Shown: positions 9,591 through 64,000 of the stretch, one piece after another | Numbering within the stretch: the stretch's first letter is position 1 | Layout of the letters: the number at the start of each line of letters is the position of its first letter | Position numbers and translations under genes: made by a program | The notes under the pieces: generated by a model | Database searches by the model: none | Told to the model about the DNA's origin: nothing | The model's input: only the letters and a program-made list of their open reading frames with translations | Assembly (NCBI GenBank): GCA_026770705.1 | Contig: JANJGN010000017.1 | Location: 41,664,001-41,728,000, forward strand | Direction: 5' to 3' | DNA: 64,000 nucleotides | DNA from: Isurus oxyrinchus | Lineage: Eukaryota

Positions 9591-11057
9591 GAAAAACTCT
9601 CCAACACTGCTGATTTTAGATCTCTAGTGGTGTAGTTTTGAAAACTTTTTGTTAATTTCTCTTGGTCCCAGTGGAGAGGTTAAGTGTAATTTCTGTACAA
9701 ATATTATCTGATGGTCCAGAAATGAATAGTATTTGTCAAAAGTGCCAGAACTAACATTATTGCATTACATCAGCATTAGAAAATACATTTAACGTGTGAT
9801 GATCTTGTGTGTACAAGCCAACAGCTTTGGCTTTGTGGGGTGACAGTGGAAGTGCGGTCAGGCAGTGCAGAGCCCACTTTCATCAGCCTTGTATTCAGTG
9901 AGAATTCTGGGCTATTCACGGGCAATATTAGAAGATCAAGCAGCAAGGGACATGGGTTGCTGTGGTTGCACATAATCCGCAGTGCAAAATTACAGGACGT
10001 TTTGGGGTAATACAGAGGATAGTTGAGGTCACACTGATTACACTGATTTCTGTCATCTAATGCTGAGGCATAGACTTGGGTTGCAAACACTTAATGTTGG
10101 TATGAAACTCTGATGGTTGGCTTGCCTGCTTATGCCTACATGCTGTGAAAGTTTACGCCAAAGGGAATACTGCGATCCAGTGAAACCTGTGTATCATGTC
10201 CAGACCATGCCTTTTTGCGAAAGTAAAAATGAAGAAATTGTTATTATCTTGCAACTTAATTGACTATCATGTCCTTTATTCAAGTGTGCACTGCAACTGT
10301 CTGGTATAATAGATGTCTCCTGGGGGGCTTAAGGATGGATGCGTTTATATAATTGATCCATATCTGCTGGAGGAACTATGGACAAGATTTTCAAGCTCAC
10401 TTCGAGGTGAGCATGGAGGCGGCCAGACGCAAAGCTTGCTGGCTGCACTGTGTCCCCAGACCATTTTCCCAGAGGTGGGATCAAAGTCGGCAGGGCTACC
10501 CATCAGCAAGCGGCTGATAGTCAAGTGAGGATGGTTAAAGGCCTATTAAGGCCTAATGTCAGAGGCAGATTAGAATTTTCCAGGGGCCCTCGAGGCATCA
10601 GGGAAAAGGCCAGCTGCCTGAAAGTGGACCTCCTGGCAGAAGACTGGAGCAGGATGGGGTAGGGGAGTGCTCCCAAGTCAGGGGTTTGAAGGTTGCCTCT
10701 GCTTGCCTGGCCACAACTGGCTGCCCCCATCACAATGGTGGTCTGACTGCTGAGGACAATTTTCAAACTTAAAAGTTTAGTAAGTTGGAAAGAAGCAACT
10801 CAAGATGGAGACGCCGTCTCTCTTTCTCTTGCCTGAACTGCAGGCTGCAGCTTAATTGGAGAGCTGCTTTTGACCCTGCAGCTTCGAGAGTTCATCTGAG
10901 CCTATCCTCTGGCCAGTAATCAGCCAATTTGGGGAAATTAATTCCAGTGATCATTTCATACACAATGTGGGGTTGTGGACCCCCCCTCCCCCCCCCCCTC
11001 CCCCCCCCCAACCCCCCATTTGACCCCCACATAATGTTCCCAATCCAAAGGGCACAA

Positions 11058-11295
11058 AGGTACAGGCAAAATATTTCAGATGCTGGAAATCTGAAACAAA
11101 AACACAAAATACTGGAAAAACTCAGCAGGTCTGGCAACATCTGTGGAGAGAAAGACAGAGTTAATGTTTCAAGTCCGTATGACCCTTCTTCATAGCTCTG
11201 AGGAAGAGTCATACAGACTCAAAACGTTAACTCTGCCTTTCTCTCCACAGATGCTGTCAGACTGGCTGAGTTTTTACAGCATTTTTTGTTTTTTC
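11058..11295. mobile_element. Fold-back (palindromic) PLE-derived element with degenerate hammerhead motifs
   Basis: Inverted arms centred on AGCT (11194-11197) with no spacer. The left arm carries an extra ~35-nt tail. TSD tccaaagggcacaa (11044-11057) / tccaaatggcacaa (11296-11309). Right-arm motif CTGAGGA-A-GAGTC-atcaa-type loop (ataca)-GACTC-AAAAC-GTTAAC. Confidence 0.8.
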
Positions 11296-12920
11296 TCCAA
11301 ATGGCACAATCTTGCTCTTTGTTTCAAAAGTTCTATATTTGATGCTTCACAGCATCACATGGCACAACTCTGTGGTAGCCTGCTATGTGAAGCAGAGGTG
11401 TCTCTGTTGACATGGCCAGGAGTAGATCCCAGGGTAGCGATAGGCATAGCAGAATGTCTCAGGCCATTGTTTCTCAGGAATTCTTTCCCTTATTTCAGTT
11501 ATGCAGTGTATTCAGAACCATAAAGGAACAATCAACATTCCCTCTTCATGGTACCATGTCAAAGTCATCAGTACGCAGGCATAATGCCGAAAGGTAATCG
11601 TGGAAAGATAAACAAAAATCACAAAAATATAGAGGCCTTTACAATAACTCCAAAGAAAACATGAACCGAAGTGCAGCCAAGGCACATAGAGGATGAAAAA
11701 CTAAGAGAGGTTTGTATTGTCTTCTTTTGCAAGGTCTTCTTGTGTGGGCATTGTCCCTAACATTCCAGTGTGTCCAATTTTTAAGGACAAGCCTGATGCT
11801 GAGGTTTGGTCTTGCCCAAAGTTGTGAAATCGGGGCACTAAAATATTGAAAAAGGATTTGTATATTTGAGTGAAGGTGCAGGCAGCAGTCAATTTCGCTT
11901 TTTACCCCAAATCATGGGGAGTAAAACAAAGACTGAATGCGATGTCCTGCTGTTAGATTGAGGCCTCACATTCTGAGCTTGAGGCCTGAAACAGTTAAGA
12001 TCTTGCATTTTTTTACTATTTTGTACATCAGCAGCACTTGCTTTAACAATGTTTTGAAATGTAAATTGACTGAATTATGAGCAGGTACAATTGAACAAGT
12101 GAGTTTCTTTAGTTATAAAACAGCAGCATGATAATATTGATTGCAAATACTTCCTTTTGCCTGCTTTTAGCTTTTGAGAGTACAAGAAAACGTTCAATGC
12201 TACTACACAGCAACACCTTACCAAAAGATTACATGGTGCAGGGAGCCCTGATGTTAGGGGACATATCAGGGAGGTTTTGCTGCAGGAACTCCAGTTATTT
12301 TCTATTTGTTTACCATGGCTCTCAGAAATGGTGCCATTCAGGTCACCCAGGGAAGTGCTGGAGATGTAGAATGTTTAGAAACACAAAACCATGAAAATGC
12401 AGAGAGGAACATACAACCTTTTAACACAAATCAGACATTGCTGGATTCACTAGTATTTTGGAATTGTATTGCTTAACAAATGGAATCAACATTTTTCAAC
12501 TGAAGAAAATCTGTGATAAGATCTTTATTGTGAAACTTTATTTTTTTTACTTGTCCTCATTTAGGCAGTTGTTTTACCTCTTAAGCTATCAGTTTAAAAG
12601 TTAATATATGCCCCCTATAATGTTATGTATATTTTCCTCATTATTAAAGCCATGCAGCTCCCTCAATGATTTCCCTCAAAGAATAATGTCTAGTTCTCCA
12701 TCAATAATGGGGCATCCATTTACTGCTTCTCACTACGCTATACAGTTTGATTATTGTTTTTTGAAGATTGGTGCAATGCCTTTGATTTTACTGTTTAAAA
12801 ATTTGTTTTTTCACCAGGCCCTTGCATTGGAAAGTAGTTCACAGTTATGTGGTAATATTTTTAAAAGGTATTTATCTTCTTTTTGAGTCCATTTTTACAC
12901 AGCTTCTCGAATGAGTCAGG

Positions 12921-13025: not shown

Positions 13026-13664
13026 AAATGAGAAGGATGCCAGGCATGTGTGTGTGCTGAGTGAAGCCGTGGATGGGATGATGAGGTGATCTGCAGAGGA
13101 GATGAGGCCAGGTGGAGATGTGAGGGTGTATGTGAGAGAGCAAGTGGTGATGTCCCTTGAGCTGGCAGTGACTGAGATGCCAATGAATGTGTGATGGGCT
13201 TGTGAGTGGGTGAGTTGAGAGTGATGAGATGGTTGACTTACCTTGCTGGATGAGATCATTCATCCTATTTCTGCACTGGATGGCCGATCTCTTGTCTGCA
13301 GTGTTGGCACTGACCACCGCAGCCACCGCTTCCCAAGCCCAAGGAGACTAATGGGCCTCCTGAGACCAGAGCAGAGGTAGAGAGTGGTGGTCATCCACAT
13401 TGACCAAAAGATATTCAAGGGATAAGTCACTGTAGTAATTGTAGCTTTCAGGGATGTAGTGATTGTAGCTTTAAGATTTATTGTGTTGTATAGTATCACG
13501 TGACAGTGTGAATGAATCAGCTCTAAGCGTGGGGCATCTTGGAGCAGCAGTTCTTCTTCTAGTTGTGGAGCTCGATGGAAGCATGTAACTGCTGCTGCAA
13601 CCTGTAAATAATTATCGATATTTCTAATGAGAAACCTGTCTTGAAAATCAAGTCCATATCAAAC

Positions 13665-16912: not shown

Positions 16913-19740
16913 CATTTGTGGGGTACAGGCACCAGTATTGAGGACAGTGGGATCTATGCTGTTGAGACGGTCTAAACCTGAACTTTGCTGGGGCTGGTGT
17001 CTTCGCAAACCAACCAACTAGGTGAGTAGAGAGTTTATAAGCTGAATAATTGGGCAAGGGATCAAATTTGGGAAGATGTGGTAAACCAAAGAGTGGAGAC
17101 AAGGCAGGCCAGACAGGAAAAAAAATGGGAAACGATAAACAATGTGACAGGAAGGGAGAAAGAATAAAATTCTAAGAGTAAATCAGCAGATAAGGCTAGA
17201 TACTACAAAAATAATAAAAGGACAAAACTAAAGGCTCTGTATCTAAACCCATGCAGCATTCAAAACAAAATAGATGAACTGATAGCACAAACAGCAATAA
17301 ACAAGTACGATTTGAAAGCCACTACAGAGACATGGCTACAGGATGACATAGATTGGGACCTGAATATTAAAGGGTACATGGCATTTAAGAGGGACAGGAA
17401 GTTCGGAAAAGGTGGAGGGGTGGCTCTGTTAATTAATGATAGTATTAGCACATTAGATGGCCTAAGTCCAGGAAACCAGGACGTAGAAGCGACTTTGGTT
17501 GAGATGAGGAATGACAAAAGCAAGAAGTCACTTGCAGGGGTGGTGTACAGGCCTTCTAATTGTAACTGCATAGTAGGACAGAGTATAAAAGAAGAGATAA
17601 TGGAAGCTTGTCAGAAAGGTACAGCAGTAATCATGGGAGATTTTAATCTACATATAGAATAGAAAAATCAGATTAACAAAGGTAACGTAGATAAAGAGTT
17701 CATAGAATATTTTCGGGATAGTTTCTTAGAACAGTATGTTCTGGAGCCAACCATAGAGCAAGCTGTACTAGACCTGGTATTGCACAATGAGATAGGATTA
17801 ATTGATAATCGCATAGTGAAGGCACCTCTAGATAGCACAGATCATAATATGATTGAATTTTACATTCATTTTGAGGGAGAAACAAGTGATTCGAAGACTG
17901 GTATTTTAAACTTAATTAAGGGCAATTTTGAGGGCATGTAAACAGACCTAGCTAAAGTGAACTGGCAAATAAGGTTAAGGGATATGTCAATAGAAGTTCA
18001 GTGGCAGACATTTAATGGGATATTTCAGAATACGCAAAAGATATACATTCTAATGAGAAAGAAAAATTCTAAGGGGAAGGTCCCCCATCCGTGGTTAACT
18101 AAGAAATTTAAAGAGAGTATCAAACATAAAGAAAAACCATATAATTACACAAAGGCGGATAGCAGGTCACAAGATTGGAAAGAATATAAAGAAAAGCAAA
18201 AGACAAAAAGATTAATAAGGAGGGAAAAATTAGAGTATAAGAGAAAGCTAGTTAGTAATATAAAGATGGATAGTAAGAGTTTCTATAGATATTTAAATAA
18301 GAAAAGAGTCAACAAAGTGAGCATTGGTCCTGAAGAGAGTGCGTCCTCGGGAATTGATAATAGAAAGTAGGGAAATGGCAGATGAATTAAACTGGTATTT
18401 TCCTTTGGTCTTCACTGTAGAGGACACAAGAAACATCCCAGGAATAGCTGTAAATCAGGAAATGGAAGGAATGTTGGAACTCGAGAAAATTGCAATCACC
18501 AGTGAAGTGGTATTGAGCAAATTGTTGGGGCTGCGGGCTGACAAATCCCCAGGTCCGAATGGACTTCACCGTAAGGTCCAGAAGGAAGTGGCCAGTGAGA
18601 TAGTTGATGTACTGTTTAATTTTCCAAAATTCCCTAGATTTGGGAAAGGTTCCACTAGATTGGAAAATAGCAAAGGTAACTCAAAAAGGGAAGGAGACAA
18701 AAAACAGGAAACTACAGGCCAGTTAGCCTAACATCTGACATAGGGAATATGTTAGAATTTTTTATTCAAGAAGCTGTAGCAAGACACTTAGAAAAATTCA
18801 AAGCAATCAGGCAGAGTCAACATGGTTTCATAAAAGCTGGAGTCATGTTTAACCAATTTATTGGAGTTCTTTGAAAGAGTCACATGTGCTGAGGATAAAG
18901 GGGAACCAGTGGATGAACTGTGCTTAGATTTCCAGAAGGCATTTGATAAAGTGCCACCTGAAAGGTTATTACAGAAAATAAAAGCTCATGGTGTTGGGGG
19001 TAACATATTGACATGGATAGAAGATTGGTTAGCCAACAGAAAGCAGAGAGTGGCATAAATGGGTCCTTTTCTGATTAGCAGGATGTGACGATTGGTGTGC
19101 TTCATGGATCAGTGCTGGGGCCTCAACCTTACAATTTATATTAATGGCTTGGATGAAGGGGCCAAAAGAATGGTGGCTAAATTTGCTGACAACATAATGA
19201 TAGGTAGGAAAATAATTTGTGGAGAGGATGTAAGGAGGCTACAAAGTCACATAGATAGGTTAAGTGAATGGGCAAAGACTTGGCAGATGGAGTATAATGT
19301 GGGCAAATTTGAAATCGCTCATTTTGACAGGAAGAATAAAAAGGAAGCTTATTATCTAAATGGTGAGAGATTGCAGAGCTCTGAGGTTCAGAGGGAACTG
19401 GATGTCCCAGTGCATGAATCACAAAAGGTTAGTATGCAGGTTCAGCAGGTAATTAGGAAAGCTAATAGAATGTTACCATTTATTGTGAGGGGAATTGAAT
19501 ACAAAAATGGGGAGGTTACGCTTCAGTTGTACATGGCACTGATGAGACCACACTTGGAGTACTGTGTACAGTACTGGTCTCCTTATTTAAAGAAAGATGT
19601 AAATGCATTAGAAGCAGTTCAGAGAAGGTTTACTAGACTAATACCAAGAATGGGCAGGTTGTCTTATGAGGAAAGGCTGGACGGTTTAGGCTTGTATCCA
19701 CTGGAATTTAGAAGAGTAAGAGGCGACTTAATTGAAACCT
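16912..19740 (+). mobile_element. CR1-type LINE, truncated at both ends, inserted in the Harbinger transposase
   Basis: ORF1 remnant ..HQY*G.WDL..DGLNLN. Endonuclease ETWL..GKGGGVALL..IMGDFN. RT LDFQKAFDKVP, KFAD, RPHLEYCVQYWSPY. Ends at RGDLIET with no 3' tail. Confidence 0.9.
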
Positions 19741-22700
19741 TCCTGTTCCTAACTCATATCATTGTATGTCTATACAGCCAGTTCACCAGGCTCCATGATC
19801 CTGATGTACTCCTCCTGCAGGATGAAAGAGAGAGACACTTGGTTTGCATGGGTATACTAAAAACCTGTCCTGGTTAAGTGTGAAGGCTCTTTAATGCTTC
19901 CCAGAGAGTGCTGGCCACCACTTGGATGGCCAGAGATTAGTGCGTTGCATGGCTGTCTGAAACCCCATCCACCTCCACCCCACTCCGCTCGACTGATTGG
20001 CGGCAGCTTTGCCCATTGGACTGCATGCTTTGCTCTCAGCTCAGGCACAGGCTTTCTCCTAACCTGCGCTGCAAGGCTGCATTGCTAGCTTGAATCATCG
20101 GGGAGACTGGTCCAAACCAGGATTCGGACACTGCAAGGGGCTGTGAGCATCTCCAGCAGTGGTTGTTCCACGGCCAGCTTTAGCAAGGAGATTGTACAAC
20201 ATGTGCAGTCATCCAACTGTTCTGCAGTCCACTAAAATGCTCATGAATTTGCAGTCTGTGCCAGGGTGGGGGGGAGAGGTGAAAAGCTTTGGGGCACTTG
20301 GTGGCACTTTGATGCCTCTGTGTTGCTTGAGTGGACAGATAATCTAGAAGCCCGACACCAATCATATCAATGTGGCTGCACTTGAACTGAATCAGCTTCA
20401 GAGGAATGGTCACTTTATACAGGTTTCCCTAATACGTGGCTGCTTCCCTCGCCCACCCTACCCCCCACCCTGAAAGCTTGTGCACTATATTCAATGACAG
20501 GGTTTCCCTTGTCCCCACCCCCCCAAATGCTTGTGCACTATATGCAATGGCAGGGCTGCCCTTGCCCCTCCCCCCACAAGTCACCTCAACCGAATGGCAG
20601 CCCTTGTCCCCCCCAAGTTACCTCAACGGCAGGGCTGCCTTTGATCCCTCCAACGCTCCTCAAGCTTGAAGTCCAGCAGGCGACTCTGGCAAGCACTGGA
20701 CATCTTTGCTATGTACTCAGCTTCGAGTTTCCCTCAAAGTGCAGCCCACCAAGTGGACGCCTTTTATATGCTGTTGTGAAACACGCTGGCTTGCTTTCCC
20801 GCCAATGTGGATGGACAATCCAGCGGGGTGGGGTGGCGGGGATGGGGGGGGGTGGTGGGGGTGTGGAATGATTCCGGCAGGCTGGCCTAATAATGATATG
20901 CAGATGTATTACAATGAGGTTCCCAAAATCCAATGGCGGGAAACACGGGCCGCTGTTGGCAGGCTGAGTGGATGATCGCGAACTAGTTTCACACCGTTGT
21001 GAAACCGATCATGGCATATTGCCTGCTCATGCCACCAAACACGCCCGACGCCAGCAGGCATGGAAAATCCCTGCCAAAGAATAACTCCCACCTCACAATT
21101 TTAAAACTGAAATCATGGCCCACAGAAGGTGTTCTGCTGATTCAGAACAAGTGTAGTTCATAAATGGCAGAAAGATAACTGTGGCAACATTTTGGCAGCA
21201 GTATAGTAAAATATTTTTAACAAGATCTTTTAAGATGAAATCCACTTTAAGATCACCCCTGTCAAATTGCGAGTTCAGCTCTGCTGGAGATAGCACATCC
21301 CATGTTAGGCAAATTCTACTTACTCTTTTAAAACAGTTAAACTACATTTGGATTAAATCATCCACTGGAGCCTGATACATACACAGATCTCTGCATGCGC
21401 TCCAATTAAAATTGCGCGACATGTTTCTTCCATGGTGCCTGATCACGAGCCAACAGTATGCTCAGTTTGTTTATATCTAGCTGCCACCAGAGAGGTGGAA
21501 ATTGTAAGCGGGCCACTGGAACTATTAAAGGATCATTCAGCCCTCATTAAAATCACAGCTGAGCTACAAGGCCAATTCTCATCATGTCAGATACTGTTAT
21601 GTTCTGTAGTGGAATGCTACCGGCATGAAGTAAGCAGAAGTTAGACAGGAAAGCATTTTGCACATTTAGCAATAACTATTTAGAGAAATTTATATAATGT
21701 ATGATATGCTATTAAATGACTGGACATGTTCACCCTAATTATTGCCTTATATGGAGACGGTAGGTCAATGTGCAATTGAAGTGAGCTCCTGAAGATGGCT
21801 GTAACCAAAAGAGCACTGATCAAAATCTCAAGATCTTGCAGCCCTTTTTTCTTTGAAATGTATGCCTTTCACTTTCTTTCTGCTGTGTTGGAAAGAAAGT
21901 TTCAGAGTGTAAATCGGATGTGTGGGTGGAAATGTGCCCGGTTTCATTTAATCTTTCCGAGCTAAACAACCAGCAGTGTAGGTGCTAATTAAAAATAAAA
22001 CACAATGATGGAGACTGGCAATGATTTATGTGCACTGAATGCATTTTAAAAAGGCAATCAATTTGTTGGATATCTCTAGGATCATTATGTTCTTTGCAGC
22101 TTATTCAATAAGGTTGGCTCTTCTTGCAGAATAATTAATTCATTGAATTGTTAATCTATTTTTCAAATAGATATTTTGCGCAACCAATTTAAATGAACAA
22201 TCCTTTCTTCCCTCATTCCCATATGGGCATAAAGAAGGGATGAGAATGTTACCAGGGTATAATTGTGGGCCAACTCAATCTTGATCAGTTCACTTAGGCT
22301 GAACCAGTAGTGGGTCAGCACGGTTGAAACCTGTAGATTGCAGGTGACTCTGGTGGGGAAGGCCAGTCTCACATCTGATGAAATGGTTATTTGACATGTA
22401 CATTCTCAAATCTGCTTTAAGAGGAACAGCCTTGGTTATATTTAGCCACTGTGTATATTTGACTGCCTGTTGGATCGGAAAATATTATTAAAGCCTGTTT
22501 ACAGGTGCAAAACTAAATTTACTACTGTGACACCTATAACTTAAGTGTGTTAACTTTGCAACTGAGGTTGGAAAGGAATTGAAAGCAACTTATGGAAAAA
22601 TGTAGGTGAAAGGAGTTCCAGACTGCAAACCGCATAAATCTGGACAGCAGGTGGAGATCTGTAACAATTACTCTCATTTTTGGACTCTCTGCTTTTCTGA

Positions 22701-23129
22701 AGTTCTGGTTTTCTTACATTCGGCTAGCAGAAAGTGATAGTTTGACCAGTGGACCGCCCTGCAGAGACTTTTAGTTCAGTGTTGTTACATTTGAAGTGAT
22801 ACTTGACAACCTTTTTGGAGCAGAATTGGTTTTGCTGTCTCCCTTCAGAAACAAACCTGGAATGCTTGTCCAATCTAATGAGACACCTGAACCTAGCAGT
22901 GCCATCTTGTTCTTGATGGCCCTTGGAGTTGGCATTGCTTCCTCCTCTTGCTCTGTTGGCCATGCTATACACCTAATTTTCTCAAGGTTACATGGTGCAA
23001 GTCAAGATATTCACTTCCTTTTCTGCATTTCCCTCCCTGTATGGAAATGAGCTTTCCATGACATGCATCAGAAGCTCACACACTTGGATAAATACCTGGA
23101 TTAGCAAGCAGATGAGCTGGAATCCATGA

Positions 23130-24805
23130 TCTGTCCTTTAGCATCTAAAATGGTAGCTGCTGAGATAGTGAATACACTAGTTGTGATTCTCCCAAATTCC
23201 CTAGGTTCTAGAATGGTTCCAGCAGATTAGAAGTTCGCAAATGTAACATCGCTATTCAAAGGTGGAAAAAAAAAGGGTACCACAGGCCTATTAGCCTGAC
23301 ATCAGTCATTGGGAAAAAGCTGGAATCTATTATTAAGGAAGTCTCAACAACTTGGAATATCACTTATGATCAGACAAAGTCAGCATGGTTTTATGAAAGG
23401 GAAAACCTGTTTAACAAATTTATTTGAGGTTTTTGAGAATTTAACTGGTAGAATAGACAAAAGGAATCAGTACAAAAACAGAAACAGAAATACCTGGAAA
23501 AACTCAGCAGGTCTGCCAGCATCAGTGGAGGAGAGCACAGTTGATGTTTCGAGTCCTCATGACCCTTCAGCAGAACTATTCTGTCTGGATGGACAATCCA
23601 GCGGGGTGGGGGGGTGGGGGTAGAATGATTCCGGCAGGCTGGCCTAATAATGATATGCAGGTGTATTACAATGAGGTTCCCAACATCCAATGGCGGGAAA
23701 CGCGGGCCGCTGTTGGCAGGCTGAGTGGACGATTGCGAACTAGTTTCATACCGTTGCGAAACCGATCATGCCATATTGCCTGCTCATGCCACCAGACACG
23801 CCCGACGCTGTCAGGCATGGAAAATCCCTGCCAAAGAATAACTCCCACTTCACAATTTTAAAACTGAGATCATGGCCCACAGAAGGTGTTCTGCTGATTC
23901 AGAACAAGTGTAGTTCATAAATGGCAGAAAGATAACTGTGGCAACATTTTGGCAGTAGTATAGTAAAATATTTTTAACAAGATCTTTTAAGATGAAATCC
24001 ACTTTAAGATCACCTCTGTCAAATTGCGAGTTCAGCTCTGCTGGAGATAGCACATCCCATGTTAGGCAAATTCTACTTACTCAGAACAGAACTGTTCTGT
24101 TCAAGGGTCATGAGGACTCGAAGCGTCAACTGTGCTCTCCTCCGCTGATGCTGCCAGACCTGCTGAGTTTTTCCAGGTATTTCTGTTTCTGTTTTTGTTT
24201 TGGATTTCCAGCATCCACAGTTTTTTGCTTTTATAAAAGGAATCAGTAAATGTAGTATACTTTGATTTCCAAAAGGTATTCAGTAAGATGCCACAGAAAA
24301 GATTAATGTGCAGTTTAAGGGCTCATGGAGTTGGGGGTAATATATTAGCATGGATAGAGAATTGGTTAACTGACAGGAAGCAGAGAGTAGGGATAAACAG
24401 GTCATTTCAAGTTGGCAGGGTGTGATTAGTGGTGTGCTGCAAGGACTGCAAGACCTCAGCTATTTAAAATCTATATTAATGACTTAGACAGAGAGTAATA
24501 TATCTAAGTTTGCTGATGATACAAAGCTTGGTGGGAATGTAAGGACAAAAAGTGGGACTTGGGTGTACTTGTAGCAGGAACACAGGAAGTTAGCATGTAA
24601 GTATGAGAGCATTCCTGGTGTATGGTGCACAGTTTTCATTTCCATACTTAAGAAAGGATTTCCTTGCATTGGAGGAGGTAGACTGAAGGTTCACTAGATT
24701 GGTTTCTGGGAGTGTTGTCTTAAGGTGAGTGACTGGGTAAACTGGTCTTATAGTCTGGAGTTTTAGAATGAGAAGTATCTCATTGAAATATTTAAAATGT
24801 TGAAA
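23130..24805 (+). mobile_element. Decayed CR1 RT fragment, interrupted by the composite PLE insertion
   Basis: IRQSQHGFMKGKTCLTNL.E.FE before 23459 continues as ..DFQKVF.KMP..KFADDTK after 24248. Confidence 0.8.
23473..24234. mobile_element. Composite insertion: inverted PLE arms (23473-23585, 24083-24234) enclosing a copy (23586-24082) of 20808-21325
   Basis: Exact 14-bp TSD aaaaggaatcagta (23459-23472 / 24235-24248). The arms are reverse complements, and the right arm has the extra tail. The interior is ~96% identical to 20808-21325 by manual count, apart from a shorter G-run. Confidence 0.9.
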
Positions 24806-24807
24806 GG

Positions 24808-27010
24808 TTTTTTTTAATTCTTTCATCGGATGTGGGTGTTGCTGGCAAGTCCAGCATTTGTTTTCCATCCCTATTTGCCCTTGAGAAGGTGTTGTGGAGC
24901 CGTTTTTTTGAACCGCTGCAGTCCATGTGGTGTAGGTACACCCATGAGGCTATAAGGAAGGAAGTTCCAGGATTTTGGCCAGTGACAGTGAAGGAATGGC
25001 AATATATTTCCAAGCCAGGATGATGAGTGGCTCAGAGGTAAACTTGCAGATGATGGCGTTCCCATGCTTCTGCTACCCTTGTCCTTCTAGGCGGTAGAGG
25101 CTGTAGGTTGGAAGGTGTTGTTGAAGGAATGTTGGTGAGTTGCCGCAGTGAATCTTGTACATGGTACACATGCTGCTACTTTTTTTTATTCATTCATGGG
25201 GTGTGGGCTTCACTGGCTGAGCCACATTTATTGCCCATCCTTGGTTGTCCTTAAGAAGGTGGTGGTGAGCTGCCTTCTTGAACCATTGCAGTCCATGTGG
25301 TGTAGGTACACCCACGAGGCTGTAAGGTAGAAAGTTCCAGGATTTTGAACCAGTGACAGTGAAGGAACAGCGATATATTTCCAAGTCAGGATGGTGAGTG
25401 ACTTGGAGAGGAACTTCCAGTTGGTGGTGTTCCCATCTATTTGCTGCCCTTGTCCTTCTAGATGGTAGTGGTTGTGGGTTTGGAAGGTGCTGTGCAAGGG
25501 GCCTTGGTGAGCTCCTGCAGTGCATCTTGTAGGTGGTACAAACTGCTGCTACTGTGCATCGGTGGTGGAGGCAGTGACTGTTTGTGGAAGGGGTGCCAGT
25601 CAAGTGGGCTGCTTTGTCCTGGATGGTGTCAGGCTTCTTGAGTGTTGCTGGAGCTGCACTCATCCAAGCAAGTGTGAAGCATTCCATCACACCCCTGATT
25701 TATGCCTTGTAGATGGTGGACAGGCTTTGGGGAGTCAGGAAGTAAGTTACTCATCGCATGATTCCCAGCCTCTGACCTGCTCTTGTAGCCACAATATTTA
25801 TATGGCTAGTCCAGCTCAATTTCCGGTCATGGTAACCCCCAGGATTTTGATAGTGGGTTATTCAGTGATAGTAATGCCAGTGAACGACAAGGGGTGATGG
25901 TTAGATTCTCTGTTGTTGGAGATGGTCATTGCTTAGCACTTGTGAGGCATGAATGTTACCTGCCACTTGTCAGCCCAAGCATGGATATTGTCCAGGTCTT
26001 ACAGCATTTGGACATGGACTGCTTCAGTACCTGAGGAGTAACGAATGGTGCTGAACATTGCGCAATCATCATCGAACTTCCCCACCTCTGACCTTATGAT
26101 GGAAGGAAGGTCATTGATGAAGCAGCTGAAGGTGGTTGGGCTGAGGAAATTACCCTGAGGAACTCCTGCACTGAGTCCTGGAGCTGAGATGATTGACCTC
26201 CAACAACTGCAACCATCTTCCTTTGTGCGAGGTATGACTCCAACTTAGCAAGATGTATCAGTGGTGGAGGGAGTGAATGTTTGATGTGCTGGATGGGGTG
26301 GCGATCAAGTGGATTGCTTTGTCATGGATGGTGTCAAGTTTCTTGAGTCTTGTTGGAGCTGCACTCATCCAGGCAAGTGGAGAGTATTCTATCACACTCC
26401 TGACTTGTGCCTTGTAGATGATGTACAGTTTTGAGGAGATGAGTTACTTGCTGCAGTATTCCCAGCCTCTGACCTGGTCTTGTCGCTACAGTATTTATAT
26501 GGCTAGTCCAGTTCAGTTTCTGTCATTGGTAACCCCCAGGATGTTGACAAGTGGGGGATTCAGTGATGGTAATGTCATTGGATGTCAAGGGGAGATGGTT
26601 TGATTTAAGGGGAGATAGTCACTGCCTAGCACTTGTGTGGCACGAATGTTGCTTGTCACTTAACCTGAATGTTGTTCAGGTCTTGCTGCGTACAGACATG
26701 GACTGCTCCAGTAGCTGAGGAGTCGCAAAAGGTATTGAACATTGTGCAATCATCAGTGAATGTCCCCACTTCTGACCTTATGGTAGTGAGAAGGCCATTA
26801 ACGAAACAGACGAAGACGATTAGGCCTAGGATACTGCCCTAAGGAGTTCCTGCAGTGATGTCCTAGAACTGAGATAATTGACATCCAACAACCACAACCA
26901 TCTTCCTTCGTGCTTGTATGATTCCAACCACTGGAGAGTTTTCCCCCTGATTCCCATGGACTGCAGTTTTGCTAGCGTCTCCAGCAAAAACTTCTCTTCT
27001 GACACCACTA
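24808..27010 (-). mobile_element. CR1/L2-superfamily LINE 3' part with a second copy of the same family nested at ~25179-26245
   Basis: Two 3' ends (ttt..attc(a/t)ttcat.gg.tgtggg) at ~24808 and ~25179. RT C-terminal MECFTLAWMSAAPATLKKPDTIQDKAA..SWNFLP. The outer copy resumes at ~26255. Confidence 0.75.
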
Positions 27011-58113: not shown

Positions 58114-58338
<225 letters not shown>

Positions 58339-61669: not shown

Positions 61670-62182
61670 GAAGGCGGCCTTGACAAGGTGGACACCGAAA
61701 GCATGTTTCCTCTTGTGAGTGAGTCCAGAACTAGGGGGCACTGTTTTAAAATTAGGGGTCACCCTTTTAGGACAGAAACGAAGAGAAAATTTTTTTCTCA
61801 GAAGGTTGTGCGACTTTGGAATTCTCTGTCTCAGAAGGTGATAGAGGTGAAGCCACTGAATATTTTTAAGACAGAGGTAGATGGATTCTTATTGGATACG
61901 GACTTGAAACATCAACAGTATCCCTCTTCGCAGATGCTGTCAGACCTGCTGAGTCTTTCCAGGTATTTTTGTTTTTGTTCTAGACTTCCAGCATCCGCAG
62001 TATTTTGCTTTTATCTTAGATGGATTCTTGTTAGGTAAGGGAATCAAAGGTTATCGGGGTTAGATGGGAATGTGGAAATCGAAACACAGGAAGATCAGAC
62101 ATGATCTTATTGAATGGCGGAGCAGGCTTGAGGGGCTGAATGGTTTACTCCTGTTCCTATTTCTTATGTTCTTATGTTCCTA
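61670..62182 (+). mobile_element. Younger CR1 3' end, interrupted by a PLE arm
   Basis: LDKVD..MFPLV.ESRTRGH..FFSQKVVRLWNSL; tail ttcttatgttcttatgttc. Confidence 0.85.
61891..62016 (+). mobile_element. PLE-derived 5'-truncated arm
   Basis: gacttgaaacatcaac...cagatgctgtcagacctgctgag...ttccagcatccgcagtattttgcttttat. Exact 13-bp TSD tagatggattctt (61878-61890 / 62017-62029). Confidence 0.82.
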
Positions 62183-63101
62183 ACCTCTGAATTATTCAAG
62201 AAAGGCAGGAGAGAGAATATGGGAAATACAAGCCAGTGAGCCTGACATCAGCCATCAGTAACATTGGAATCTGTTATTAAGGAAGTGACAGCAGGGCACT
62301 TAGAAAATCATAATATGATTAAGACAGAGTCAGCATGGTTTTACGAAAGGGAAATTGTGTTTAAAAGTTTTGTTATTTTTTTGAGGATGTAACTAGCAGG
62401 CTAGATAAAGGGACCCTGGATGTAGCATATTTGGATTTTCAAAAGGCCTTTGATGTAGTGCCACCAAAAGGTTGTTGCTCAAGCTAAAGGCTCATGGAGT
62501 TGGGATAATGCAGTAAAATCAATAAGAAATTGGTTAAAGGACAGAAAACAGAGAGTAGAAATAAACATATCATTTTCAGTGGGCTGCTGCAAGGATACGT
62601 GCTCGGGCCTCAGCTATTTATAATTTATATTAGTGACTCAGGTGAAGGGATCAGGTGAAATCCATCTAACTTTGCTGACTACACAAAGCTAGGTAGGTGA
62701 CTAAGCTATGAGGAGGATACAAAGAGGCTGCAAAGGGACATAGACAAGCTAAGTGAGTGGTTAATAACATAAGAACATAAGAAATAGGAACAGGAGTAGA
62801 GCATTCAGCCCCTCGAGCCTGCTCCGCCATTCAATAAGAGCATAGCTGATCTTCTTGTGTTTCAATTTCCACATTCCCATCTAACCATTATAACCTTTGA
62901 TTCCCTTGCCTAACAAGAATCTATCTACCTCTACCTTAAAAATATTCAATGACCCCGCCTCCACCACCTTCTGAGACAGAGAATTCTAAAGTAGCACAAC
63001 CCTCTGAGAGACAAATGTTCTCCCCATCTCTGTCCTAAAAGGGTGACCCTTAATTTTAAAATAGTGCCCCCAAGTTCTGGACTCACCCACAAGAGGACAC
63101 A

Positions 63102-63413
63102 AAACAAAAACAGAATTACCTGGAAAAACTCAGCAGGTCTGGCAGCATCGGCGGAGAAGAAAAGAGTTGACGTTTCGAGTCTCCATGACCCTTCGACAGA
63201 ACTTGATTTCGAGTCCAGGAAAGAGTTGAAATATAACCAGCTTATATTTCAACTCTTTCCTGGACTCGAAATCAAGTTCTGTCGAAGGGTCATGGAGACT
63301 CGAAACGTCAACTCTTTTCTTCTCCGCCGATGCTGCCAGACCTGCTGAGTTTTTCCAGGTAATTCTGTTTTTTGTTTTGGATTTCCAGCATCCGCAGTTT
63401 TCTTTGTTTTCAA
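63102..63413. mobile_element. Young, near-perfect palindromic PLE-derived element
   Basis: Arms 63106-63236 and 63242-63372 are exact reverse complements around a 5-nt spacer (ccagc), giving near-identical ORF translations on both strands. The right arm has a ~35-nt tail. Exact 14-bp TSD cacaagaggacaca (63088-63101 / 63414-63427). Confidence 0.92.
63275..63313 (+). ncRNA. Minimal hammerhead-like motif with variant core (mirror copy on the - strand at ~63165-63203)
   Basis: AGTT-CTGTCGA-A-GGGTC-atgga-GACTC-GAAA-CG-TC-AACT: stem I AGTT/AACT, 5-bp stem II, palindromic ACGT stem III and a GUC cleavage triplet. A6 of CUGANGA is replaced by U. Confidence 0.65.
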
Positions 63414-64000
63414 CACAAGAGGACACATCCTTTCCACGTCCACCTTGTCAAGGCTGTTCAGGATCTTGTATTCTTCAATCAAATCACCCCTCACTCTTCT
63501 AAACTCTAGTGGAAACAAGCTCAGTCTGTCTAACCTTTCCTCATAAGACAACCCCTCATTCCAGGTATCAACCTAGTAAACCTCATTTTAAAGGCCTCCA
63601 ACGCATTTACATCCTCCCTTAAATAAGGAGACCAAAACTGCACACAGTATTCAAGGCGCGGTCTCACCAATGCCCTGTATAACTGAAGCATACCATCCTT
63701 ACTTTTATGTTCAATCCCTCTCATAATAAAGGATAGCATTTCATTAGCCTTCTTAATTAGTTGCTGTATCTGAATACTAACTTTTTGTGACTCGTACTAG
63801 AACACCCAGATCCCTCTGCACCTCAGAATTATGCAGCCGTTCTCCATTTAAATAATACTGTTTTTTTGTTCCTCCTGCCAAAGTGAACAACTTCACATTT
63901 CCCCACATTAAACTCCATTTGCCAGATCTTTAAACTCACTCAACCTCATGTCCTCTTCACAACATACTTTCTTACCTATCTTTGTGTCATCTGCAAATTT

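Follow-up and report, generated by a model that had tools for sequence, protein, structure and literature searches.

Host DNA of nearby origin between head-to-head Penelope arms in Isurus oxyrinchus: a probable local capture and a candidate mechanism

How did some 500 bp of neighbouring host DNA come to lie between two inverted arms of a Penelope-like element (PLE), and could the resulting unit move again? These questions were raised by an earlier note on a 64,000-nt stretch of the Isurus oxyrinchus genome (GCA_026770705.1, contig JANJGN010000017.1, positions 41,664,001 to 41,728,000, forward strand). This stretch is called the window below, and coordinates are window positions unless a locus name precedes them.

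The insertion and the source of its cargo

The features of the locus are collected in Table 1. The earlier note described a target-site duplication (TSD) around a left arm, a direct copy and an inverted, tailed right arm, and sequence comparison showed this bracketing to be exact. When the whole 64,000-nt window was searched, the 14-mer was found in these two places only. Of 3000 random window pairs drawn at 780-bp spacing as a control, one had a 14-mer in common, and that one may be the TSD site itself. TSD lengths in the family are mostly 11-19 bp. The arms (23472-23584 versus 24086-24198) are 93% complementary over 113 nt. The interrupted LINE, which we take to be CR1-like, is collinear across the site, but its reading frame does not simply resume past the TSD, as the note held; the frame shifts by one base there, and stops are present on both sides.

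Table 1. Positions of the insertion, its cargo source and the surrounding features in the window.
Feature	Position	Strand	Basis or remark
Cargo source	20808..21325	+	Dispersed-repeat end up to about 21077, followed by ~250 bp of unique flank
Decayed LINE RT fragment split by the insertion	23161..24535	+	Collinear with window copies 18596-19153 and 62228-62697
Left TSD, 14 bp	23459..23472	+	Exact 14-mer
Tail-less PLE arm, 5' ~105 nt of the pseudo-LTR	23473..23577	-	Ends at the family's recurrent 5' stop point
Hammerhead-like motif, left arm	about 23539-23577		Altered core
Partial copy, 8 nt, of the end of the partner arm; half the usual palindrome centre	23578..23585	+	Sequence
Cargo, same-orientation copy of 20808-21325	23586..24082	+	Alignment
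2 extra bases and 9-nt partial copy of the left arm's end	24083..24093	+	Sequence
Hammerhead-like motif, right arm	about 24093-24131		Altered core
Tail-bearing PLE arm, 141 nt (tail about 24200-24234)	24094..24234	+	
Right TSD	24235..24248	+	Second exact copy of the 14-mer
Host gene exon, discoidin domain	58174..58324	+	PF00754, E 1.1e-8; sets plus-strand transcription through the insertion

The 497-bp cargo matched its source at 478 positions, with 19 mismatches and a single 21-bp gap in a G-run. The source ends 2133 bp ahead of the TSD (source distance 2–3 kb). The segment 21085-21325 had two matches in the 4.98-Gb genome, the source and the cargo. Among the 40 matches scored for the whole cargo, no further close copy was found, and the next-best matches listed were at most 85% identical over the first ~250 bp only. 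The copied segment is therefore read as the end of a dispersed repeat joined to unique flank, as the earlier note had proposed, and the presence of that flank in the cargo bears out its view of local copying rather than independent transposition. The right cargo junction occurred once genome-wide with up to one mismatch allowed. The Harbinger label of the source-side repeat comes from the earlier note, and none of 18 ORFs in that repeat gave a Pfam match. Elsewhere in the window, 13027-13347 on the minus strand gave a weak Myb/SANT-like match (PF13837, E 8e-4, below cut-off) and is possibly a Harbinger-type remnant.

Source and insertion lie within one ~62-kb intron of a plus-strand discoidin/carboxypeptidase gene, presumably CPXM2-like, with further exons at window -22376, -6049, 56373, 91485 and 114853; pre-mRNA is therefore a possible template. 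The intronic duplication carries no sign of function.

The duplicated cargo was also found beyond the assembly. Contigs of run X1, which is possibly the source sample, held cargo-specific alleles at single-copy depth. Organism B differed from the assembly at 11 of 847 flank bases (1.3%), and its depth over the duplicated part was 1.4-1.8x in runs from three studies. One organism B contig held the cargo alleles at 23868, 23956 and 24015, and another crossed the left TSD and ran 24 nt into the arm with no differences, a length below the 31-nt bridging rule. No contig across the whole cassette was among the pieces listed, and the 15 joints shown included neither an empty site nor a palindrome-only allele. 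None of the holders listed for the sequence was an RNA data set. The insertion is very probably older than the divergence of these two organisms.

The Penelope family, its paired arms and their hammerhead motifs

The arms are 5' ends of the pseudo-LTR (pLTR) of a Neptune-like Penelope element, and the insertion at 23459-24248 holds pLTR ends only. The family copies L123-L125 gave an RT match (PF00078, E 1.8e-5, below cut-off). C-terminal to the RT and beside the pLTR, a GIY-YIG-type stretch (YCIRC...LYIGE) was recognised by eye in these copies, in which Pfam gave no GIY-YIG match. A CX2-5CxxC linker (CPRKRCNTC) is present between RT and EN; the consulted part of PMC8557442 gives this linker as a feature of EN+ PLEs of the Neptune/Nematis type. 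The EN+ PLE hallmark of an inverted pLTR, a 30-40-bp tail at one end and a TSD is present at the locus. Many family copies stop at one identical base, the start of helix I (window 24093), which may be the RNA 5' end and also resembles a splice acceptor. Family-wide, the body upstream of this base looks like an initiator and a splice acceptor both.

Head-to-head pairs are the family's normal product. Perfect palindromes of this kind, with the recurrent stop base at their centre, are common in the genome, with 1517 exact matches to the arm start behind a 5-nt fold-back, many of them paired. The gap between arms was no more than 20 nt in 157 of 188 distinct TSD-bounded pairs, an enriched sample. 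Exactly one tail was present in 100 of 101 close inverted pairs, and 2 of the 101 had arms of different subfamilies (L025 and L203). In these two-subfamily pairs, at L025:1370-1650 and L203:1370-1640, the arms differ by 13 mismatches over ~95 nt; a 15-bp TSD is clear at L025, and no TSD was found at L203. For a lizard PLE in vitro, the available text of PMC11167929 describes cutting and extension of both strands, with two RT start sites that bracket the tail. Together, the one-tail rule, the mixed-subfamily pairs and this in vitro result suggest that a normal pair consists of two end-joined cDNAs, one from each strand. Counting against this, private variants were common to both arms in most pairs, which is expected from one RNA or one source locus; a two-RNA reading needs RNAs of the same locus or arm conversion.

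Partial copies of the partner arm without cargo were common at these junctions. At about 25 junctions a TSD was not found within the fetched DNA, and at none of the three TSD-less junctions tested did the upstream DNA have a closely matching second copy, which suggests that insertion there was accompanied by deletion. At L131, L134, L138, L145-L149, L160, L171, L173 and L300-L305, a partial partner copy was seen with neither partner nor TSD nearby. The window itself holds two further TSD-bounded head-to-head pairs without host cargo (63089-63426 and 11057-11307), one young (98% self-identity) and one old (85%). It also holds inverted LINE-like 3' ends (61704-62194 versus 62750-63101, 86-90%), the first of which is split by a PLE arm with a short duplication.

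The minimal hammerheads that the earlier note saw in the arms hold up as a family trait and less well at this locus. The type I layout (helix I, helix II, palindromic helix III, bulge after position 9) was parsed in 339 of 424 distinct arm starts. Both cores of the insertion are altered, however, and neither matched the intact CUGANGA ... GAAA, the left arm having CUGCUGA and the right CUGUUCA with GAAG. Rfam gave no hammerhead or ribozyme match in window 20000-25000. Family cores are mostly CUGUUGA or CUGUCGA. Core position 6 is U in place of A in 305 of the 339 parsed arms, a sample picked by search patterns and dominated by young subfamilies; older copies have the canonical core.

The idea that the cassette might be re-mobilised as an RNA bounded by ribozymes is not supported. 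The two motifs lie head-to-head on opposite strands, both with altered cores, the predicted fold of a cassette RNA pairs arm with arm, and no daughter copies were found. A retrozyme would have two same-strand ribozymes bounding its unit and multiple copies, and neither was found here. Cleavage at the sense motif would part the cargo from the RT start sites. What results appears to be a local duplication of a rare kind and mostly a dead end, and not a ribozyme cassette able to move.

Recurrence and possible mechanism of capture

Recurrence was assessed from sampled junction classes in place of a direct genome-wide arm-gap-arm search, and the frequencies are therefore estimates from enriched samples. 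Junctions with a partial partner copy were fetched in 172 of 173 cases (83/83, 24/24, 57/58 and 8/8 by search pattern), a few of which look like duplicates of one insertion. Besides the window locus, four of these 172 imperfect junctions were same-chromosome host captures, so that the event is not the one-off accident the earlier note had allowed for. L172 carries 179 bp from a source 710 bp away, in the same orientation and present in two places in the genome, and L063 carries 31 bp from 1023 bp away. The junctions of both resemble the signature at 24083..24093. At L242/L358 (G000:C2:43.037 Mb), 538 bp are a 99.8% copy, on the opposite strand, of a source 146 kb away (L359, G000:C2:42890368-42890905); a 17-bp TSD surrounds a new tail-less arm and the copied block, which is made up of a complete earlier palindrome, with its own TSD at the source, and 300 bp of flank. 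L244 and L360 (G000:C2:229.254 Mb and 229.817 Mb), 563 kb apart, share ~170 bp of 5' flank at 98-99% together with the adjoining solo arm, and in L244 a 15-bp TSD surrounds the copied solo arm with its flank and a tail-less arm. Beside the source palindrome of L359, a 256-bp piece of unique flank is present as an older inverted duplication at 93% identity (L359:1504-1759 and 1946-2201).

No host capture was found within the 1.5-3.4 kb flanks of 79 unenriched arms (29 + 30 + 20), nor a second capture in 264 kb around the window, where there were 37 arm matches. A close local copy was obtained for 2 of 150 random 180-mers; a local match alone is therefore weak, and the TSD-bounded position decides. 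We conclude that capture is real and recurrent, with an estimated share that is probably about 1% of insertions or fewer. Their effect on genome evolution is probably modest, because capture is rare (4/172 enriched junctions, 0/79 unenriched arms).

Several candidates were set aside. The 812-bp interior of L143 is the 3' part of another LINE, apparently 5'-inverted and presumably with a restriction-like endonuclease motif; its best match (95%) is on another chromosome, and it is probably a separate insertion. This LINE (L143:7200-8011) sits at the palindrome centre with a 7-bp duplication. At L016 only 32 bp matched at 90%, inside a repeat and with no TSD. The interiors of L029, L039 and L262 are PLE-derived, and those of L140 and L311 are probably older PLE body or later insertions. 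L242, which was kept as a capture, does have an inverted cassette with flank copied into a new TSD, but its source lies 146 kb away in a 4.98-Gb genome and its junction has a partial partner copy, which speaks for capture by a fresh insertion and not for a freely mobile RNA.

For the window locus we consider it an even call that a single Neptune-like insertion took place in which both nicked strands primed cDNA, the join began and was aborted, and the RT extended one end on a nearby host template. A protein dimer would cut the target with a ~14-nt stagger. The two cDNAs would have different starts, the tail site for one and a point ~35 nt upstream of it for the other, and each would run off the RNA 5' end; in the usual course, one would then jump onto the 3' end of the other and give a perfect palindrome. 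Here each cDNA may have copied 8-9 nt of its partner before the join was aborted; that the usual join had begun is suggested by the 8-9 nt from the partner at each arm end. With hardly any homology to guide it, the tail-bearing cDNA would have switched to a template whose end lies at 21325 and copied ~500 nt. The extended cDNA would then have annealed to the other end at 2 nt, the gap being closed by microhomology.

The cargo junctions have 2 nt (left) and 1 nt (right) of microhomology. In all three captures over kb-scale distances, 2-5 extra bases accompany 0-1 nt of homology at the cargo end distal to the source, and microhomology of about 2-8 nt marks the opposite end. This pattern would suit an RT jump to a free 3' end followed by annealing; the R2 RT jumps templates via untemplated overhangs, according to the accessible text of PMC8857657. 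As the template here, nascent intronic pre-mRNA is slightly favoured over unwound DNA. The cargo orientation fits plus-strand pre-mRNA, an orientation test of one locus at even odds, and no host exon or strand was found at L172 and L063 (Pfam match in 0 of 47 ORFs). Of the earlier note's reading, a template switch by one RT to a local template and back, the single TSD-bounded insertion and the local copying are supported, but cDNAs on two strands fit the anatomy better than one RT returning.

The strongest rival starts from the same two-ended intermediate and has host repair, by synthesis-dependent strand annealing (SDSA) or Pol theta end joining, extend the cDNA end on nearby chromosomal DNA; we judge it unlikely, yet well worth keeping in view. 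It draws on the long-range copies L242 and L244, in which a homologous PLE arm and its flank were copied from 146 and 563 kb away; their start at a homologous arm suits DNA strand invasion by host repair no less than an RT jump and weighs against capture by the RT. The L172 junction has 8 nt of microhomology, which could be where copying started and not where it ended, and the TSD-less arms without a second upstream copy (3/3 tested) suggest resection and end joining at such intermediates. Against it, homology at the present locus is just 1-2 nt at either junction, and the 180-500 nt tracts exceed typical Pol theta insertions, which are shorter than this. The templated insertions of L1 have been interpreted as SDSA-like (10.1101/2024.08.27.596794, part consulted), in keeping with host repair.

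Less probable still is a history of two events, in which a plain palindromic insertion broke later near its centre, through cruciform cutting or a second cut by the element, before a templated repair patched it. About 15 bp of the centre are repeated on both sides of the cargo, and a duplicated palindrome centre would also be left by a later staggered break there, which weighs against RT capture; L143, with its 7-bp duplication, shows that another LINE can occupy a palindrome centre. Divergence is lower in the unique half of the cargo than in the arms (4/241 versus 7/106, CpG sites included, p = 0.04), which counts against one-event capture. Non-CpG divergence, however, did not differ between arms and cargo over two cases (7/190 versus 16/641, p = 0.45) and is compatible with a single age. 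A second break is moreover unneeded, as partial partner copies without cargo are common at junctions, and L063 would require a ~120 bp deletion from one arm as well. An assembly artefact, or an independent transposon copy landing between the arms, is highly improbable. Inverted repeats assemble poorly and no listed contig spans the whole cassette, but source and cargo differ at 19 sites, and an artefact is made unlikely by the cargo-specific alleles in contigs of a related organism, cargo alleles being present in contigs of two organisms; the unique flank within the cargo tells against an independent transposon copy.

If the single-insertion reading with an RT jump to a host template is carried to the family, a Penelope dimer would reverse-transcribe two RNAs from both strands, and the RT would jump between free 3' ends, usually to that of the partner cDNA and at times to nascent host RNA within the same chromatin neighbourhood, at distances of up to 0.6 Mb. 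We put this forward tentatively and think it somewhat doubtful. If true, the jump to the partner cDNA accounts for the long-unexplained inverted pLTRs; it would also be a general route of local duplication in vertebrate genomes and could explain intron retention and host cargo in PLEs.

Comparison with known systems

Capture of host DNA by Penelope elements is already known; mapped cis sources and a two-cDNA junction signature were not found in the literature searched. That search, with subscription papers largely outside its coverage, yielded no paper mapping cis sources of sequence captured between inverted PLE arms and no genomic evidence for two-RNA insertion or a two-cDNA junction signature. 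The origin of inverted and tailed PLE structures is described as unresolved in the consulted part of PMC8557442. The present genome offers thousands of young junctions on which the PLE mechanism can be tested, and captures with mappable sources make the question of an RNA or DNA template testable through strand bias. The finding serves better as an entry point to the PLE mechanism than as a case of a new mobile element.

The locus has a mark of templated insertions: a host segment occurs a second time within the TSD, and its source is still intact. The accessible text on L1 reports priming of reverse transcription from both target ends, a TSD that is kept, microhomology joins, and genomic DNA copied in at 22 of 3,598 insertions (10.1101/2024.08.27.596794; PMC11702581). 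L1 templates are typically <250 bp and within 15 bp of the site, whereas the templates here are far more distant (10.1101/2024.08.27.596794, part consulted). L1 twin priming uses different parts of one RNA, in contrast to the arms here, which are the same RNA segment with two fixed starts (same sources, as far as available).

The Poseidon element of Anolis shares with the present family two-strand cutting and extension, RT starts that bracket the tail, and a pLTR hammerhead, which was dispensable for insertion in vitro (PMC11167929, available text). Poseidon belongs to a different clade from the Neptune-like element here, so that the in vitro support comes from outside the clade, and two-cDNA joining and host-sequence capture are not described in that text. 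Minimal PLE hammerheads are described as type I with palindromic helix III and a bulge before helix II (PMC4209133; 10.64898/2026.07.22.740005, both in part), and opposite-strand paired motifs 100-700 bp apart were previously known (PMC4209133, in part). Retrozymes are tandem same-strand repeats (10.64898/2026.07.22.740005, in part), unlike the head-to-head motifs of this young family with U at core position 6.

The closest precedent is Penelope of Adineta vaga, for which the available part of PMC3846280 describes host sequence, including non-coding sequence, framed by pLTRs in one TSD, and, as here, inverted pLTRs arranged head-to-head whose junction forms a palindrome and which may carry a tail. 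The captured gene in Adineta vaga lies between direct pLTRs, whereas the present cargo lies between head-to-head 5' ends. A neighbouring source is not described in that part of the paper; the sources here lie 0.7-563 kb away on the same chromosome. The same text derives the palindromes from self-priming on an antisense template, while the one-tail rule and the mixed-subfamily pairs fit two sense-strand cDNAs better. Together with the partial partner copies, these two observations connect genomic products with the in vitro result of 2024 and speak against antisense self-priming.
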